Positions 1,308-12,068 of a stretch of 24,253 nucleotides of DNA are shown here, piece by piece. Within the stretch, counting starts at the first letter, position 1, and every line of letters begins with the position of its first letter. The position numbers and the translations under genes were made by a program. The notes under the pieces are model-generated. The model was not told the origin of the DNA. It worked only from the letters and a program-made list of their open reading frames with translations, and did no database searches. Origin of the DNA: a virus (taxonomy: Duplodnaviria; Caudoviricetes); IMG/VR virus record IMGVR_UViG_3300020043_000366, positions 1 through 24,253 of that record. One strand, 5' to 3'.

Positions 1308-1478
1308 ATGCCATTGACAAAAGGTTATTCAAGCAAATCCATCGGCAAGAACATCAAAGCCGAGAAGAAAGCAGGCAAGCCTATGAAGCAAGCCGTGGCC
1401 ATCGCATTGAATGTGGCCACCAAAGCAGCCAAGGCCGCAGGCAAGCCCAGCAAAGCGCCAAAGAAGGCCATGAAATGA
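1308..1478 (+). CDS. Small Lys/Ala-rich basic protein (56 aa), absent from ORF track
   Basis: AGGAG RBS then ATG 1308; MPLTKGYSSKSIGKNIKAEKKAGKPMKQAVAIALNVATKAAKAAGKPSKAPKKAMK*; stop overlaps next start (ATGA). Confidence 0.85.
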   Translation: MPLTKGYSSKSIGKNIKAEKKAGKPMKQAVAIALNVATKAAKAAGKPSKAPKKAMK

Positions 1479-1651
1479 AGTCCGGTCTCTATGCCAACAT
1501 TCACGCCAAGCGTGAGCGTATTGCAGACCAGAAGGCCGCAGGCAAGACACCTGAGCGCATGCGCAAGCCAGGCACAAAGGGCGCACCTACAGCCGCAGCT
1601 TTCAAAGCCGCAGCAAAAACAGCAAAGCCCATGAAAAGAAAGGCTAAGTGA
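1475..1651 (+). CDS. Small basic protein (58 aa), absent from ORF track
   Basis: MKSGLYANIHAKRERIADQKAAGKTPERMRKPGTKGAPTAAAFKAAAKTAKPMKRKAK*; coupled at both ends (ATGA, TGATG). Confidence 0.85.
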   Translation: MKSGLYANIHAKRERIADQKAAGKTPERMRKPGTKGAPTAAAFKAAAKTAKPMKRKAK

Positions 1652-4906: not shown

Positions 4907-6666
4907 TGGCAACCGCACCAACATCCCGAAAACTTAACCTAACGCGAGATCAACTCTCGCAGTTTTTGACTGATCAACAACAAATCAGACAGTTTGAGTT
5001 GTTATTTTCCGCTGTTGATGCACTTCAGGTCATTGTCGGAACTGACTTTGAGTACCAGGCAGACACAGCAGCGGCCACAGCAAATGAGGCTCTTGCACAA
5101 TTAAGTGCGCTGGCCCAAGACACCGCAGTCGAGGATGCTGTACTCAACGCCAAGGTGCAGCAGGCATTGGATGCCGTGGCTCAATTGGCTCGAACGCTTG
5201 AACTGATTGCAACTGCGCCAGCTATCGAAAACAACAACTCGGTGGTGACGGATTACATTGATTTCAACAGTAATGCTCCTTATCCTGTAAACAAGGTCGG
5301 AAGATTGCATTGGAATGGTGGATACACGCTCAACTTGGATATGACACCAGATGTCAATCAATCCATTGGCGAGGCACAGTATTACTACATCAAGGCATCA
5401 GCAGCTATTGCCAAAGGTGAGCTTGTGATGTTCGATGGCTCTGTTGGTGCGTCTGGCGTGCTCAAGGGCAAGCCATCGACTGGCGTGACAAACGGCCAGC
5501 TCATCATGGGTGTGGCCGCAGAAGCAATTGCAAACAATGGATTTGGATTGGTCTCCAGTTTCGGACTGGTGCGAGGTTTTAACACTACTGGCACACCATA
5601 TGGTGAGGTCTGGGCAGATGGTGACATTTTGTACTACAACCCATCATTTGCTGGTGGATTGACCAAGACGCAACCGACCGCACCACTTCCACACATTGTG
5701 GTGGCCGCAGTCGTCAATGCAGCCACAGCAGGTTCTGGCTCTGTCTTTGTCAGAGTTCAGGCCGAGCCATTGGTCAGCCAACTTTCTGACGTTTACGCAC
5801 CAACACCAGCCAATAATGATGTGCTGATTTATGACTCAGTCCAACAGCGCTGGGAAAATGCTCCTATAAGCACAGCTGGCGCAGTCACATCTGTCACAGG
5901 CACATCGCCTGTCGTGTCGTCTGGCGGCACAACACCTGCGATCAGCTTGGCTTCTGGATACGGTGACACTCAGAACCCCTACGCTGCCAAAACAGCCAAC
6001 TATGTGCTGGCCGCACCTAATGGCTCATCTGGTGTTCCTACATTCAGGGCTTTGGTGGCCGCTGACATTCCTGCGCTACCTTATGGAACTGGCACAGTCA
6101 CTAGCGTCTCTGTCGTGTCGGCCAACGGTTTTGCTGGCACTGTGGCCACGGCTACGACAACGCCTGCGATCACCATGTCGACAAGCATCTCTGGCCTGCT
6201 ATACGGAAATGGCACAGCGCTTGCAGCCACTACAGTTAGCGCACCACTGGCCTACTCCGCTGGAACACTGAGCATCACGCAATCTGGTACGGCCAGCAAT
6301 GGTTATCTGTCCAGCACCGACTGGAACACATTCAACAACAAACAATCGGTGTCTGCACCAGTCACAAAGACAGCTGACTTTACGGTTGCGGCCACTGAGT
6401 TATGGCTGATCAACAATAAGTCTGGATCGACTTGTACGGCCACACTTCCTGCGGCTTCATCTTACTCAGGCCGAGTGTTGCATTTTCAGAACTACCAGGC
6501 ACAGACACTAGTTTCAGCATCATCAAATGTCGTTCCATTGGCTGGTGGAGCTGCTGGAACGTCGATTCTCTTGGCAAGTTCAGGTGACTCTGCGACACTT
6601 GTGTCAGACGGAACTAACTGGCTGATGACACAATACATCCCGAACAATATCCTTCTTTTGGAGTAA
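4906..6666 (+). CDS. Tail needle-position protein (gp26 slot) with long fibre-like C-terminal extension
   Basis: Directly after gp10; N-terminal ~110 aa helical/coiled-coil, then S/T/G/A-rich fibre segments with repeated VTSV...TPAI motifs and a terminal LVSDGTNW knob-like domain. Confidence 0.65.
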   Translation: MATAPTSRKLNLTRDQLSQFLTDQQQIRQFELLFSAVDALQVIVGTDFEYQADTAAATANEALAQLSALAQDTAVEDAVLNAKVQQALDAVAQLARTLELIATAPAIENNNSVVTDYIDFNSNAPYPVNKVGRLHWNGGYTLNLDMTPDVNQSIGEAQYYYIKASAAIAKGELVMFDGSVGASGVLKGKPSTGVTNGQLIMGVAAEAIANNGFGLVSSFGLVRGFNTTGTPYGEVWADGDILYYNPSFAGGLTKTQPTAPLPHIVVAAVVNAATAGSGSVFVRVQAEPLVSQLSDVYAPTPANNDVLIYDSVQQRWENAPISTAGAVTSVTGTSPVVSSGGTTPAISLASGYGDTQNPYAAKTANYVLAAPNGSSGVPTFRALVAADIPALPYGTGTVTSVSVVSANGFAGTVATATTTPAITMSTSISGLLYGNGTALAATTVSAPLAYSAGTLSITQSGTASNGYLSSTDWNTFNNKQSVSAPVTKTADFTVAATELWLINNKSGSTCTATLPAASSYSGRVLHFQNYQAQTLVSASSNVVPLAGGAAGTSILLASSGDSATLVSDGTNWLMTQYIPNNILLLE

Positions 6667-6669
6667 ACC

Positions 6670-7005
6670 ATGACTGTATCAATCAAGGTGCTAATCCCAC
6701 CAAAACAGGCCGAAAATGCCCAAACTACGCAGTACACAGCAACCAACTGCAAGGCGATCATTGACAAATTCACGATCACCAATACCAACACAACAAATGT
6801 GACCATCAGCGTCAATTTGGTGACTGTTGGAGGAACGGCTGGCGCATCAAACCTGATCATGGACACTCGCGCCATTGCACCCGATGAGACCTATACCTGT
6901 CCCGAGCTGGTCGGTCAAGCGCTGGAGTCCGGTAGTTTCATATCCACTATTGCCAGTTCAGCCACATCGCTGACCATCCGCGCATCTGGCCGCGAAATCA
7001 CTTAA
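6670..7005 (+). CDS. Hypothetical beta-rich virion protein
   Basis: GGAG RBS, 111 aa, Thr-rich, in the tail operon. Confidence 0.7.
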   Translation: MTVSIKVLIPPKQAENAQTTQYTATNCKAIIDKFTITNTNTTNVTISVNLVTVGGTAGASNLIMDTRAIAPDETYTCPELVGQALESGSFISTIASSATSLTIRASGREIT

Positions 7006-7015
7006 GGAGAACAGC

Positions 7016-7417
7016 ATGGACAAATTTATGATGATGCCCAAGGGTTTCATGGGCCTGCCGATGGAGGAAGAATTCATCACCACAGCCGAGAACAAAAAAA
7101 ACACCCAGATCGCCATCGATGACTGGATGCTCGGCCCAGAAAACCCAAGCAACGAGCCAACGGCCAATAAGACCTACTGGATCGCTGTAGGCAAAGCCAT
7201 GCAAGTGGACGAAAAAGAGTCTCGTCGTCGTCGCTGCTCGAACTGCGAGTATTACGACAACAGCACCATGACACAGGCCAAGATGGAGCGCATCCCACGC
7301 AATGAGTGGGACACCGATGCTGGTTTTCGTGGCTACTGCACCAAATTCGAGTTCATCTGCCACGACCTGCGCGTCTGCCAGGCATGGGAAGAGCGTGAAT
7401 TTGAAATGGAAGATTGA
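7016..7417 (+). CDS. Cys-rich hypothetical protein (CxxC...C...C, HiPIP-like spacing)
   Basis: TAAGGAG RBS; CSNCEYY...GYCTKFEFICHDLRVCQAW. Confidence 0.75.
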   Translation: MDKFMMMPKGFMGLPMEEEFITTAENKKNTQIAIDDWMLGPENPSNEPTANKTYWIAVGKAMQVDEKESRRRRCSNCEYYDNSTMTQAKMERIPRNEWDTDAGFRGYCTKFEFICHDLRVCQAWEEREFEMED

Positions 7418-7442
7418 CCAAATGCTGAAATGTGGGAAAATA

Positions 7443-7475
7443 GAGCCGCTGAGTCTATCGGGCCGCCAGCAGCTC
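7443..7475 (+). promoter_or_regulatory. RNA hairpin upstream of the RBS of the DDxxD gene
   Basis: GAGCCGCTG (7443-7451) pairs with CAGCAGCTC (7467-7475) with one mismatch; AGGAG RBS at 7485-7489; no U-tract. Confidence 0.4.
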
Positions 7476-7495
7476 ACCCTGAATAGGAGTTGTGC

Positions 7496-7945
7496 ATGAT
7501 TGGTATCGAATGGCTCAAAGAGAACCTGCAAAGGGTTTTCATGCTGCCTGCGCCAGTCGTGGAATGGCTCGTAATGGTTTACGATGCCATTCAGGTGTTT
7601 GACGATATTGCCGATGGCGATACGGTCGAGCGCAAAGACCTGAATGCGACCATCTGGAACACACTGGTGGGAATGCACCAGAACCAATTTTTTATCACAA
7701 ACAGCCATCATCTCGTGCCATTGCTGGCAACAGCAATCATGAAGTGGCAAGCCTCTGATCATGCCGAGCGTGCAGGTGATGCCGATGCCAGATCATTTGT
7801 CTGGCGTGCAGGCTACTATGACCTGATTTTGATGGCCGTATCGCTCACGCATGGCCCAGGCTTTGCCACAAAAAATGCTCATCTGGTCATGGAGTTATAT
7901 GGCGAGAAATTTGAAGACTACATGAAGGAGTTCGGCAATGCCTGA
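7496..7945 (+). CDS. Alpha-helical protein with DDxxD motif; putative isoprenoid synthase / prenyltransferase fold
   Basis: ATG 7496 lies 6 nt after AGGAG; AIQVFDDIADGD (DDIAD at 7601-7615) at the end of a hydrophobic helix; overlaps the next gene by 8 nt. The CDS is solid; the function is inferred. Confidence 0.6.
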   Translation: MIGIEWLKENLQRVFMLPAPVVEWLVMVYDAIQVFDDIADGDTVERKDLNATIWNTLVGMHQNQFFITNSHHLVPLLATAIMKWQASDHAERAGDADARSFVWRAGYYDLILMAVSLTHGPGFATKNAHLVMELYGEKFEDYMKEFGNA

Positions 7946-8588
7946 TCCAGTCACAGCCCTAGTTGTTGGTGGAACCCAACTTGTTGGAAGTTCAATGCAG
8001 GCCAGCGCAGCTGGCGAAGCCGCAGGCATTCAATCCGGTGCGGCTCAAGCAGGAATTGAAGAACAGCGCAGGCAATTTGATGCCATGCGTGAATTGCTAA
8101 AGCCTTACACCGAGGCAGGCCTGCCAGCACTCGAAGCACAGCAAGCATTCCTTGGCCTCAAAGGTCCAGAGGCAGAACGTGCGGCCATTGAGCGAATCAC
8201 AGGCGGTGAGACATTCCAAGCACTTGCTGGCCAAGGCGAAGAAGCATTGCTTCAGCGTGCATCGGCCACTGGTGGCCTGCGTGGTGGCAATATCCAAGGT
8301 GCACTAGCTCAATTCCGTCCTCAACTGCTTAACTCATTGATTGAGCAGCAATATGGTCGCTTGGGTGGTATGACGCAACTAGGCCAGCGATCTGCTGCTG
8401 GTGTTGGCGCTGCTGGCATGGAGACAGGCACCAACGTGGCCAACTTGCTGTCTCAGCAAGGTGCGGCTCTGGCCGGTGGCGAACTTGGCCAAGCCAAGGC
8501 TTATGGTCAGCTCTTTAATCTACCTGCTCAAATGCTGGGCTTCCAGTATGGTGCAGGTGGCAAGGCTGGCGTAGGCTTCGGGTTCTAA
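7938..8588 (+). CDS. Ejection (DNA transfer) protein, P22 gp7-like
   Basis: 216 aa, G/A/Q-rich; QRRQFDAMRELLKPYTEAG and ASATGGLRGGNIQGALAQF match gp7-type pilot proteins; AAGGAG RBS. Confidence 0.82.
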   Translation: MPDPVTALVVGGTQLVGSSMQASAAGEAAGIQSGAAQAGIEEQRRQFDAMRELLKPYTEAGLPALEAQQAFLGLKGPEAERAAIERITGGETFQALAGQGEEALLQRASATGGLRGGNIQGALAQFRPQLLNSLIEQQYGRLGGMTQLGQRSAAGVGAAGMETGTNVANLLSQQGAALAGGELGQAKAYGQLFNLPAQMLGFQYGAGGKAGVGFGF

Positions 8589-8600
8589 AAGGAAAACAAC

Positions 8601-10145
8601 ATGGCAGGCATTAACCCATTCCAAGCACCAATCAACTATGCAGTTGAGGTGCAAAGTCCATTTGAGGCAGCAATCGGTGGATTCAAACTAGGTGCAGCAG
8701 GTGCAGAGGCACAGGCACAAGCACAGGCACGTGAGCGTGCAATGGCAGCACAAACAAAACTGTCAGCTTTGTTTAAAAATCCAAATGCAACAGCTACAGA
8801 CTATGCGGAAGCCTCTGCATTCTTGCCAAAAGATCAAGCTGATAGTGTTCGAAAATCTTTCGAAATGCTTACAGCAGATCAACAACAAAGTTCACTTCGC
8901 AATGCAGCTCAAGTTTATTCAGCAGTAAAGTCTGGTCAGATTGACATTGCAAAAAACATGCTCAAGGAACAAGCAACTGCATATAGAAATGCTGGTCGTG
9001 AACAGGATGCCAAAGCAACTGAAAATTCTTTACAGTTGATTGAGATTAATCCAGCTGGTGCTCAAGCAACAATTGGAGTGATGACTGCCGTTCTTCCTGG
9101 TGGTAAAGATTTACTCGCTAATGTTGATAAAGCATTGTCAACTATTCGATCAGAAGCCAAAGCACCAGCAGAATTGACACAAGCCATTGCAGCGGCAGAC
9201 AAAGCAGTTGCCGAGGCAACTACAGCTCAAGCAACAGCTACCAATGCAGCAGAAAAAGCAGCCGCAGATGCGGCCAAAGCAACAGCAGACGCAAATGCGG
9301 CTAAGGTTAAAGCAAAATATGCAGAGCAAGTCGAGATTGCAGGCCTTAACAAGACCAACTGGGACATCAACAATCTGCGCAGCCAAATTGGAGATCGTTC
9401 TGCACGTTTAAATCTTGACACTCAAAAAACAGCCGCAGATGTTGCTGCAAAAATGTCAGACATTCAGAAAAATTTGAATGACATTCCAGCAGACACACGC
9501 AAACTGATCAACGAATCCGCAGTATTGGCTGCAACATCAAAGCAATCTGCTGAACAGTTCAATGACTTGGCCAAACGCCTCGATGAATCTGGTGGTGGTT
9601 ATGGTGTGTTCTCAAGCGCATCAGACTTCTTGAAAAAGGGCGCAGGTTTCCAAGGTGGTATGACACAACTGCGTCAAGAATACACACGCCTTCGCAACAC
9701 AGCGGCCATTAAGTCTTTGCCACCAGGCCCAGCCACCGACAAAGACATTGCAATGGCCATGAAAGGCTTTCCAAGCGACAATGCATCTGCTGGTGACTTG
9801 TCGAGCTTCTTGCGAGGAATGGCCAAGTTGCAAGATGTTGATGCATCCATCAACAACGCCAAGACCGACTGGCTTGCCCAGAACAATGGCACGCTTACAC
9901 GTGCCAAGAACACATTTGTTGCTGGCGACTATGCAACAAAGCCTGGTGAAACATTTAATGACTTTTCTCAACGAATCGTCAGTGATGTATCGAAAAAGTA
10001 TCGATCACCAGAACAGATTGCAGAGGAAAGACGCCAGCAACTTGTTTCTCAAATTCCAACCAATCAAGCACCAGTGGCTGCACCAACAGCTGCACCAGCA
10101 AATATTCGATCACAGGCTGACGCAATCCTGCGTGGAGGTCAATAA
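8601..10145 (+). CDS. Ejection protein, P22 gp20 position
   Basis: 514 aa, Ala/Gln-rich helical; LPPGPATDKDI motif; second of three ejection-type genes. Confidence 0.7.
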   Translation: MAGINPFQAPINYAVEVQSPFEAAIGGFKLGAAGAEAQAQAQARERAMAAQTKLSALFKNPNATATDYAEASAFLPKDQADSVRKSFEMLTADQQQSSLRNAAQVYSAVKSGQIDIAKNMLKEQATAYRNAGREQDAKATENSLQLIEINPAGAQATIGVMTAVLPGGKDLLANVDKALSTIRSEAKAPAELTQAIAAADKAVAEATTAQATATNAAEKAAADAAKATADANAAKVKAKYAEQVEIAGLNKTNWDINNLRSQIGDRSARLNLDTQKTAADVAAKMSDIQKNLNDIPADTRKLINESAVLAATSKQSAEQFNDLAKRLDESGGGYGVFSSASDFLKKGAGFQGGMTQLRQEYTRLRNTAAIKSLPPGPATDKDIAMAMKGFPSDNASAGDLSSFLRGMAKLQDVDASINNAKTDWLAQNNGTLTRAKNTFVAGDYATKPGETFNDFSQRIVSDVSKKYRSPEQIAEERRQQLVSQIPTNQAPVAAPTAAPANIRSQADAILRGGQ

Positions 10146-12068
10146 ATGGCAACAGCCGACGAATACGCAGCTTGGATTGTCAAGAATTCCGCAAAACGCG
10201 GAACTCCTGAGTTTGACACCGTGGCACAGGCCTACCAGCTTGCCAAGGCAGAAGAAACCACGGCAGTCACACAAAAGCAGATTGCACCACCAACACCACA
10301 ACCAAGCATTGGACAACAAATTGTTGGTGCTGGTGAAACAGCATTGACATTAGGCACTGGTGCAGTCGGTGGAACACTTGGCACATTGGCTGGAACCTTG
10401 CAAGGCTTATCACAGCAAATTCTGTCAGGAAACTTTGGCACACCAGAAGCCATGCGTGCGGTCGAGAAGGCCGCAGCCGAAGGTGCGCAGGCGCTCACCT
10501 ATCAACCACGCACAGAAGCTGGACAAGAGCAGGTGCAGGCCGTTGGTCAAGTATTAGCCAACGTCTTGCCACCAGTCCTGCCTGCAATCGCAGCCCCAGG
10601 CGCTATTATGCAAGCCGCACGCACAACAGCCCCGACCGTTGGCGCAGCAGGTCAGATTGCAGGCGCAGCAGGTCGTCGGGCAGCCACCGCTACAGGCCAA
10701 GCTATTGTCAAGCCAGTACAAGCGGCCACAACAGCCGTTCGTGAGACTCTTGGCATGGAGGTAGCACCAGCGCCAGCGCAAGCCGGTGCGCGTGTCTCAG
10801 CAGGTGCAGCAGCAACACCAGAGGCTTTGCGTCGAACCACCACAGCCGAAGGCTTGCCAGTGCCTGTCACCCTTACCAAAGGTGCGGCCACCAGAGATGC
10901 CCAGCAGTTGGCTTTCGAGAAGGAACAGATCAAGAGCGATCTTGGTGGCCCATTGCGCCAACGTGCCGAGGAAAACAATCTGCAAGCCTTGCAGAACTTT
11001 GATGCCTTAGTCGACATGACAGATGCCCAGCTCATGGACTTGTCAAGCACAGGAGGTGCAGTCGTCAAGTCCCTGACTGAGGGACTGACAGCAGCCAAGA
11101 ACAGAACTCGCGCAGCTTACAAAGCAGCCGAGAAAGCAGGCGAGCTGGAGAACAATGTCACCCTAAACACCGTGGTGGACTACATCAACGAGAACATTCC
11201 AGAGGGCGACTTGGCTCCGATACTCAAGGCAGCACAACAGAAAGCCATTGCAATCGGTGCGGCAGTCCCAGACGCAGACGGAAGGCTTGTGGCACAGCCC
11301 ATCACCTTGCGCCAAGCAGAAAGCCTGCGCCAGACATTCCAACGTGCTGGTTTTGAAGGTGCAGACCAGTTCCACGGTGGAAGCCTTAAACGAGCTTTTG
11401 ATGTTGAGACAGAAGGCCTTGGTGGTGATCTCTACAAAAAGGCTCGTCAAATTCGCCTTGAACAAGCACGCAAGTTTGAAAATCGCGCCATTGTTGCTCG
11501 ACTTATCAAAAATCGAAAAGGCATGGAAGACCCACAGGTCGCAGCCGATCAGGTTTTTCGCAAGTCCATCCTAAACTCGTCACCAGAGGAAATCACGTTT
11601 TTGAAGCGTGTTCTTTTGACTAGCGGAAACGATGGCCAGCAAGCCTTCAAAGAGTTGCAAGGTGCCACTGTTCGCCATCTCAGAGACGAGGCCACAAAAG
11701 GCATGGGCATGGATTCGCAAGACCGTCCTTTGATCTCTCCAGCCAAGCTGCACCAATCTGTGCAAGCACTCGATGCAAATGGCAGACTTGATGTCATCCT
11801 TGGCAAGAAAAACGCACAGATCGTGCGTGACCTTGATGATGTCGTGCGCTACGTCACCACAGTGCCACCAGGCACATTGGTGAACAGCTCTGGCACAGCA
11901 GGAACGCTTCTGGCAGCAATGGCAGAGGCAGGAGCCACAGGTGCACTTACTGGCCTACCATTGCCAGTGGCATCTGGCATACGTCAGATCATTAAAATGC
12001 GACAAGAGGGTCGCACAAAGGCCAAGATCAATGAAGCCCTCAATGCATTGCCACAAGTGCAACCTTGA
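10146..12068 (+). CDS. Ejection protein, P22 gp16 position
   Basis: 640 aa, Ala/Gly-rich helical with hydrophobic G-rich stretches; third ejection-type gene, before the tailspike module. Confidence 0.7.
   Translation: MATADEYAAWIVKNSAKRGTPEFDTVAQAYQLAKAEETTAVTQKQIAPPTPQPSIGQQIVGAGETALTLGTGAVGGTLGTLAGTLQGLSQQILSGNFGTPEAMRAVEKAAAEGAQALTYQPRTEAGQEQVQAVGQVLANVLPPVLPAIAAPGAIMQAARTTAPTVGAAGQIAGAAGRRAATATGQAIVKPVQAATTAVRETLGMEVAPAPAQAGARVSAGAAATPEALRRTTTAEGLPVPVTLTKGAATRDAQQLAFEKEQIKSDLGGPLRQRAEENNLQALQNFDALVDMTDAQLMDLSSTGGAVVKSLTEGLTAAKNRTRAAYKAAEKAGELENNVTLNTVVDYINENIPEGDLAPILKAAQQKAIAIGAAVPDADGRLVAQPITLRQAESLRQTFQRAGFEGADQFHGGSLKRAFDVETEGLGGDLYKKARQIRLEQARKFENRAIVARLIKNRKGMEDPQVAADQVFRKSILNSSPEEITFLKRVLLTSGNDGQQAFKELQGATVRHLRDEATKGMGMDSQDRPLISPAKLHQSVQALDANGRLDVILGKKNAQIVRDLDDVVRYVTTVPPGTLVNSSGTAGTLLAAMAEAGATGALTGLPLPVASGIRQIIKMRQEGRTKAKINEALNALPQVQP

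Follow-up and report, generated by a model that had tools for sequence, protein, structure and literature searches.

The window analysed here, a 24,253-nt stretch of viral DNA (IMG/VR record IMGVR_UViG_3300020043_000366, a linear virus contig that is 70% complete), is the late region of a P22-like podovirus, whose genes for the coat, the Ad3 adaptor and Hc3 head closure have matches among P22 families. Within it lies a plus-strand gene (7496..7945; ATG 7496, TGA 7945), preceded by AGGAG at 7485-7489, that encodes a 149-aa protein containing AIQVFDDIADGD. The acidic motif DDIADGD (7601..7621, plus strand) places Asp at positions 36, 37, 40 and 42, at the end of a helix spanning residues 19-39, and is the predicted Mg2+/diphosphate site of what appears to be a minimal class I isoprenoid-synthase-like protein; we refer to the gene by this DDxxD motif. 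Scans of Pfam and NCBIfam gave no family for the protein, and its only family match is phrog_21390, of unknown function. The DDxxD gene overlaps the next ATG by 8 nt (ATGCCTGA, 7938-7945). This following gene (7938..8588, plus strand) encodes a 216-aa protein like P22 gp7, the first ejection protein (Pfam P22_gp7 PF25688, E 2e-9; phrog_598, 'DNA ejection', E 2e-33); it is the candidate substrate, begins MPDPVT and has 0 Trp and 0 Cys. Its ribosome-binding site, AAGGAG (7925..7930, plus strand), is encoded by K144-E145 of the DDxxD protein. A sequence-only reading of the locus had described an all-helical 149-aa protein with DDIADGD whose gene overlaps a Trp-free gp7-like gene by 8 nt, a description borne out by the open reading frame, an AlphaFold model, the PF25688 and phrog_598 matches and a count of the residues.

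The same reading had expected an isoprenoid-synthase fold. In the AlphaFold model (pLDDT 92.4, pTM 0.86), the protein consists of helices only, with DDxxD at the end of helix 19-39, and a wide VIA-align search with this model returned as best match 5h9d_D, the small chain of Staphylococcus aureus HepPPS (Z 10.5, root-mean-square deviation 3.5, 138 residues aligned). The first 28 rows, and 45/50 in all, have the class I isoprenoid-synthase or UbiA fold, and residues 1-149 of the model cover approximately the stretch 40-245 of synthases of full length. For a homologue from Halomonas that shares 30% identity with the query, the model has pLDDT 95.2, and the first 36 rows of its search, and 47/50 in all, have that fold (best Z 8.5, root-mean-square deviation 3.3-3.7, 134-151 aligned). 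Thus the predicted structures of two distant members both match class I proteins best, at moderate Z values. Foldseek with the query model gave a list dominated by geranylgeranyl diphosphate (GGPP) synthases and prenyltransferase domains at TM(query) 0.5-0.6, and all 4 matches at E <= 10 in a PDB sequence search are isoprenoid synthases aligned on DDxxD (E 0.3-1.1). Ord1 is among the fold matches of both models (Z 6.0-6.4), and no ComQ or PalQ entry is among the top fold rows listed. No match to a class I isoprenoid-synthase family was found in Pfam among 115 family members. Matches in BFVD at E <= 0.001 are 4 uncharacterised or unnamed proteins, and the named ESM Atlas neighbours (HEPPP_synt_1, HexPS-like, DUF2600) score 0.77-0.78, under the 0.9 line, and serve as a lead only. 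There was no sign of the alpha/beta GNAT fold in the model, nor a GNAT match in Pfam. On these models, the 149-aa protein very probably has the class I isoprenoid-synthase fold.

The DDxxD family is real, widespread and uncharacterised. Of 598 candidates from a word-indexed search with the 149-aa query, 584 reach E <= 0.001, and 820 clusters reach the same threshold in a profile search against representatives at 50% identity. We read conservation from an alignment (A2) of the query and 114 of 150 representatives listed from the 820, which are 22-61% identical to the query; the remaining 36, which include the two-domain protein P0249, were for the most part fragmentary, only partly matching or of unusual length. 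Loci of two further alignments (A3, A4) had been found via a DDxxD-containing pattern and were excluded from the counts. Conservation of DDxxD, proposed as a check by the sequence-only reading, is complete for D36, D37 and D40 (115/115), in a set whose profile search is biased toward rows keeping the motif; D42 is kept in 88/115. Three residues before the motif stands Q33 in 90/115 and H in 15/115. The long third helix holds W84-x-x-x-N/D88-x-x-E91 (7745..7768, plus strand), with W84 in 115/115, N/D88 in 103/115 and E91 in 114/115. R104 (7805..7807, plus strand) is R in 114/115 and K in 1/115, and E137, an acidic residue before the last helix (7904..7906, plus strand), is kept in 112/115 and nearly invariant also in an alignment (A7) that takes in bacterial copies. 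Seven other acidic positions (E5, E9, E23, D30, E45, D95, E133) are each kept in just 10-26/115.

Aligned by hand against IspA and IspB, the W84-x-x-x-N/D88 stretch may be the counterpart of the GQxxD-type stretch of prenyl diphosphate synthases, and R104 would by helix order stand where the KT motif has its diphosphate-binding Lys; both mappings were made by hand from the roles of these synthase motifs. Because K144-E145 spells the ribosome-binding site of gp7, the conservation of E145 (106/115) is suspect, and bacterial copies without an overlapping gene have K-N at this position. A degenerate second motif formed by E137-E145, which we considered, is weakened by this coding role and by the change in bacterial copies. 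The enzyme tree is poorly resolved. Among GenBank phages, tblastn with the query found no match, and distant homologues as queries found a sole one, the cultured Achromobacter phage CF418P1. In genomes sampled from the order of an Achromobacter genome (G003), the gene was present in 2/301, one being the seed.

Linkage to ejection genes elsewhere, which the sequence-only reading had anticipated, extends well beyond the window. We grouped 241 loci into 70 clusters at 75% identity and scanned the next gene in 67 of them, leaving out 2 clusters without downstream DNA and L082 and correcting the reading frames of L134 and L140 by hand. The next gene matches phrog_598, 4287, 8003 or 6121 (DNA ejection or virion structural) in 52/67 clusters, matches other families in 2 and matches nothing in 13. 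In CF418P1 (OQ817832), the DDxxD gene (5369-5842) lies directly before genes for 395, 591 and 2684 aa. Together with the scan, this indicates that the coupling spans several podovirus-type modules. The neighbours start MPDP/MPNP, MCC, MCG, MGC or MGS across the family, or carry leaders ending before C/F-D-G-G. Basic leaders of 15-25 aa, ending in Y/F before C, F-D or G-G-G, occur on many coupled ejection proteins, and leader-bearing ejection proteins follow the DDxxD gene in L103, L113, L139, L143, L146-L148, L150, L155, L197, L204 and L240; such leaders suggest proteolytic trimming like that of P22 gp7.

To avoid circularity, we surveyed the slot before gp7 in loci anchored on gp7 itself. A motif scan gave 120 such loci among an estimated 2400 stretches; 42 have no upstream DNA, and 78 were surveyed over <=2.5 kb upstream. 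The slot is held by the DDxxD gene in 25 loci, a cupin in 25, a gp14/DUF2824-like gene in 13, another GNAT in 6 and no recognised gene in 9, and in none (0/78) by two occupants. These classes rest on profiles built on the same proteins (leave-one-out E 1e-5 or better), with partial support from Pfam, by which 11 have Cupin_2 under the cut-off, five are SET fusions and others match Acetyltransf or DUF2824. Slot profiles run on 312 DDxxD-anchored loci found 0 GNATs, although the GNAT profiles are shallow and may miss distant genes, and 2 cupins (L140, L301), each with its own neighbour starting MTF or MSW. The mutual exclusivity with GNAT genes that the sequence-only reading had proposed to look for was thus seen in both surveys. 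Its idea that a prenyltransferase-like gene had replaced a GNAT was right about the exchange and wrong in treating it as a one-off, as the slot takes DDxxD genes, cupins (some SET-fused) and two GNAT-like groups. Seven annotated phages show the same variety: an acetyltransferase in PfAn1, cupins in ct3Oc712 and the Vibrio phage 234P9, gp14 homologues in APSE-1 and epsilon34, no recognised enzyme gene in ct76p945 and VSN-002, and the DDxxD family in 0/7.

By their sequence families (Acetyltransf, Cupin_2, five SET fusions), the other occupants look like modifying enzymes. P22 gp14/DUF2824 (PF11039) and other GNATs, such as the 'putative acetyltransferase' of PfAn1, share with the DDxxD protein the slot and a length of ~150 aa and are mutually exclusive with it in the sampled loci, yet the DDxxD protein differs in fold, in predicted chemistry and in the gp7 starts that accompany it; T7 gp13, which the sequence-only reading set beside gp14, would be a further GNAT. 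The slot cupin family, with five SET-fused members, stands before gp7s starting MS, MT or MW (L337, L357, L373, L385, L388, L401 and others) and is a candidate hydroxylase/methylase for ejection proteins. In Pseudomonas phage PfAn1, an aspartyl/asparaginyl beta-hydroxylase gene (L303:1811-2407; PF05118, E 2e-17) lies directly before the slot GNAT and is, going by this family match, a putative second modifying enzyme heading the ejection module.

The N-terminus of gp7 travels with the enzyme. In the gp7-anchored loci, gp7 starts MP[D/N/S] in 25/25 DDxxD loci and in 0/53 others, and MS, MT or MW in 25/25 cupin loci; starts were called heuristically, probably with a few errors among the non-DDxxD loci. 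Three gp14-type loci start MP[V/P], so that Pro2 by itself does not mark the DDxxD class. A query starting MPDPVTGV retrieved 10 loci, with the DDxxD gene upstream in 10/10. On a weakly resolved gp7-core tree (83 rows, 115 columns), 14 changes are required to account for the DDxxD label, and strong branches force at least 4 of them. The clearest case is a close relative, L387, which has a cupin gene and an MTFG start where the window has the enzyme and MPDP. By blastn, L387 is 86% identical to the window over 6670-7499, up to the enzyme's start codon, and 79% over 8031-8467, with nothing between; the two gp7s agree at 4/18 of the first residues and at 149/198 after. Enzyme gene and gp7 N-terminus have thus been exchanged as one block of DNA, an exchangeable cassette (7496..8030, plus strand) that comprises the enzyme gene and approximately the first 20-30 codons of gp7. 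The sequence-only reading had offered the N-terminus as an alternative site of modification; that choice of site is strengthened by these data, while the accepting group is one that we infer.

A C[PLQRH] tail (CQIQ, CPTP) in 19/115 homologues is the trace of ATG-CC in another overlap frame, and most of these read MPDP. Because it is seen in another frame, the M-P start is not merely an effect of the overlap. The idea that MPDP is a pure overlap artefact is weakened accordingly, yet 139 Pro starts in coupled loci have the -8 overlap.

We propose that the DDxxD protein is probably a covalent enzyme acting on the start of gp7, by prenyl or other chemistry; that it is metal-dependent and prenylates this N-terminus is our tentative choice, just short of an even chance. 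It would be a cut-down enzyme of the class I isoprenoid-synthase fold, whose predicted helices are those found in the first two-thirds of prenyl diphosphate synthases and which lacks the half that binds isopentenyl diphosphate (IPP). Its invariant DDxxD would bind Mg2+ and a host prenyl diphosphate, presumably dimethylallyl, geranyl or farnesyl diphosphate, and the gp7-like protein, whose gene comes immediately next, would receive the prenyl group on its N-terminus. In the window, the acceptor may be the alpha-amine of Pro2 after removal of Met; in other clades, it may be a Cys- or Gly-type or leader-trimmed start. The purpose may lie in assembly, during which the ejection protein has to be handled, or in the protein's initial contact with the envelope, and the slot as a whole would be a plug-in position for enzymes that decorate the N-terminus of the first ejection protein. 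Prediction of a complex of enzyme, Mg and gp7 residues 2-45 (score 0.18, mark 0.32) was used neither way.

Several observations weigh against this proposal. The Z values of 8.5-10.5 are moderate and under the ~13 that VIA-align asks of helical bundles, so the case for the fold rests on consistency plus the motif. Foldseek matches of both models have E > 0.5, with nothing at E <= 0.001 for the query model, and the list for the Halomonas model is led by E-value by unrelated helical proteins with low TM. Profile-profile comparison (hhalign) with 11 IspA/IspB proteins was weak (P 0.013 for the second motif and 0.033 for the first, probability <4%) and uninformative outside the DDxxD helix, for which reason residues beyond DDxxD were mapped by hand. 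The best structural match, the small HepPPS subunit, we take to be non-catalytic. The A2 consensus has no RRG loop, GKRxR IPP site or second DDxxD when set against IspA and IspB, and the 149-aa protein therefore cannot be a stand-alone chain-elongating synthase. Neighbour starts vary family-wide (P, C, G, S, leaders), so there is no single conserved acceptor residue, and the nine loci without a recognised slot gene make the modifying step seem dispensable. Independent well-supported contrasts on the gp7 tree number just 4, all concordant (p 0.125), and about half of the strong contrasts set DDxxD against 'no gene' and not against another enzyme. As crossovers fall in conserved flanks, the N-terminus may ride along passively; such hitchhiking can explain recent swaps and explains less well MPDP across distant gp7s and overlap frames. 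In the part of PMC13290415 available to us, the characterised peptide prenyltransferases of the class I fold all act on Trp, which gp7 lacks. In the available part of an in situ structural study of P22, the gp7 segments in the outer membrane are its C-terminal arms (hydrophobic residues 191-229; 10.64898/2026.09.03.749273); the suggestion of the sequence-only reading that lipidation serves membrane insertion sits poorly with this.

The last such observation comes from 61 loci in bacterial and archaeal genome records, where 20/61 copies are not prophage-like and have no ejection gene (L246, L248-L252, L254-L257, L260, L262, L267, L271, L272, L275, L276, L282, L283, L287). In 18 of these loci, from Halomonadaceae, Alcaligenaceae and two unclassified bins, a gene for a large protein precedes the DDxxD gene, and 2 more have the same Lap neighbourhood. 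Six of the 18 large proteins were examined, and TIGR03661, a type I secretion target domain, is present in 6/6; LapG- and LapD-like neighbours gave strong scores that lie under the equivalog cut-offs. Gene order varies among these loci yet the DDxxD gene stays, which suggests a link of the bacterial copies to the adhesin.

Other forms of the protein occur. In a betaproteobacterial prophage, a 368-aa protein (L280:7989-9095) fuses the DDxxD domain to an S-adenosylmethionine (SAM) methyltransferase and is followed by a leader-bearing ejection-type gene; a search for fusions in the range 355-2000 aa returned no protein and counts as weak, since this 368-aa one exists. Tandem two-domain versions with DDxxD in each half (P0249; L140:5992-6901, apparently split) were also seen, a hint that single-domain members may act as dimers.

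As proposed here, the 149-aa protein would work like a prenyltransferase that modifies its neighbour, outside the ComQ and chain-elongating synthase families. With the trans-prenyl diphosphate synthases (IspA/IspB/GGPPS, PF00348), it has in common a predicted helical core over the whole 149 aa and DDxxD at a helix end; it differs in having no PF00348 match, 5-15% identity and, as said, no RRG, GKRxR or second DDxxD. HepPPS small subunits (5h9d_D, 9kp1_A) are of similar size. Unlike both synthases and small subunits, it is encoded in a phage ejection module and keeps a perfect DDxxD, which the small subunits of heteromeric HepPPS presumably lack. The cyanobactin N-terminal prenyltransferases (AgeMTPT) prenylate the N-terminal amine of peptides and are paired with a methyltransferase, a pairing that the L280 fusion also suggests; they have an ABBA barrel fold, small-peptide substrates and no phage link. 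ComQ is encoded next to its substrate gene and is about twice the length of the 149-aa protein. The available part of PMC13290415, from which the word 'phage' is absent, gives ComQ, PalQ, the P domain of ChrPC and Ord1 the same superfamily fold and a donor-binding aspartate motif, and describes peptide prenyltransferases resembling trans-isoprenyl diphosphate synthases as targeting Trp via a second motif with a Gln. By contrast, the 149-aa protein has no repurposed second motif of this kind, its Q33 standing three residues before its sole motif, and the neighbour of the DDxxD gene is a virion protein of 200-800 aa with no conserved Trp at its start. We therefore set aside a ComQ-type enzyme, a comparison that the sequence-only reading had raised: the protein has about half the length, no second Asp motif with a preceding Gln and no Trp in gp7 to act on. 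A literature search, for which subscription papers were mostly outside reach, found no account of the DDxxD family, of prenylated proteins in phages or of exchanges at the slot, and no paper showing gp14/GNAT activity on gp7; the available parts of PMC2629481, PMC3765740 and PMC8954989 hold nothing on the family, phage prenylation or the swap.

Much of this evidence bears on other explanations as well. Cassette and covariation would look identical if a metal-dependent enzyme acted on the same gp7 N-terminus with a non-prenyl outcome (another diphosphate-activated donor, hydrolysis or trimming). The invariants W84, E91 and E137, which have no clear counterpart in IspA/IspB, and the restriction of sequence similarity with prenyl synthases to the DDxxD helix fit such chemistry, but the matched fold families all use prenyl diphosphates, according to their titles and established knowledge, and we consider this unlikely. 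A non-catalytic assembly chaperone, whose old enzyme pocket would bind the hydrophobic N-terminus of gp7, with the GNAT and cupin proteins perhaps doing likewise, would agree with the small HepPPS subunit as best fold match, with the annotation of the epsilon34 gp14 homologue as just head morphogenesis, needed at high temperature, and with a literature search that found no catalysis shown for any slot protein. A chaperone accounts poorly for three Asp, one Glu and one Arg that are invariant or nearly so at 22-61% identity, for the SET and SAM-methyltransferase fusions at the slot, or for a motif kept in bacterial copies without gp7, and it strikes us as rather unlikely.

Those bacterial copies, which persist without gp7, also suit a protein of isoprenoid metabolism, which would produce a small isoprenoid or divert one, by itself or as a phage small subunit with host IspA/IspB, in which case adjacency to gp7 would reflect late co-expression; size and best match do resemble the small subunits of heterodimeric synthases (5h9d_D, 9kp1_A). 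This leaves unexplained why the gene is so strictly exchanged with GNAT and cupin genes and why gp7 starts are specific to each class, and the IPP-binding half is missing, so that we regard it as quite improbable. A ComQ-like enzyme could, lastly, find its Trp in another ejection protein: the gp20-like gene (8601-10145, plus strand; phrog_917) encodes W254 and W424, and the presumed gp16-like gene (10146-12068, plus strand; 640 aa, no family match, named by position only) encodes W10. Ord1 is among the fold matches at Z 6.0-6.4, and all characterised peptide prenyltransferases of the fold modify Trp in the available part of PMC13290415; the same text assigns recognition of Trp to the second Asp motif and its preceding Gln, neither of which the 149-aa protein has. 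The swap block holds the start of gp7 only, and Trp-starting gp7s accompany cupins, not the DDxxD gene, making a Trp target very improbable.

Prenylation of the gp7 N-terminus, if true, would bring a lipid modification into phage biology, show that class I prenyltransferases can act on targets other than Trp, and supply protein lipidation with a 150-residue enzyme and its short N-terminal tag. The question bears on how ejection proteins get loaded, stay soluble and cross the envelope; the gene before them (P22 gp14 and its equivalents) carries merely a vague assembly annotation. The swaps offer a direct test, as they combine the same gp7 core with a different enzyme and a different N-terminus, and the family has a cultured carrier and is frequent in environmental phages, with 820 clusters at 50% identity. 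For biofilm proteins, the copies next to bacterial Lap-type adhesins pose the same question. It is possible, yet somewhat doubtful, that short-tailed phages carry an interchangeable cassette of a writer plus an N-terminal tag (prenyl, acyl, oxidative or methyl), with the DDxxD family as the writer of prenyl groups. The family would then be the first protein prenyltransferase of a bacteriophage, a class I enzyme of half size that lipidates non-Trp N-termini and that bacteria have recruited for giant type I-secreted adhesins.

Upstream of the cassette, the window carries a gene for a 133-aa protein (7016..7417, plus strand) with four Cys in the pattern CSNC...C...CQAW, which we take to be HiPIP-like; the ct3Oc712 homologue bears the annotation 'high potential iron-sulfur protein'. 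This gene lies upstream in 37/78 gp7-anchored loci with all slot types and so is not part of the cassette. After the coat gene, two short open reading frames (56 and 58 aa; 1308-1651, plus strand) encode very Lys/Ala-rich, possibly DNA-binding proteins. In Desulfovibrio prophages (L263:7645-8507, L284:7681-8465), the DDxxD gene occupies a second slot, between an open reading frame for a Gly/Ala-rich product of ~90-105 aa and a portal-like gene.

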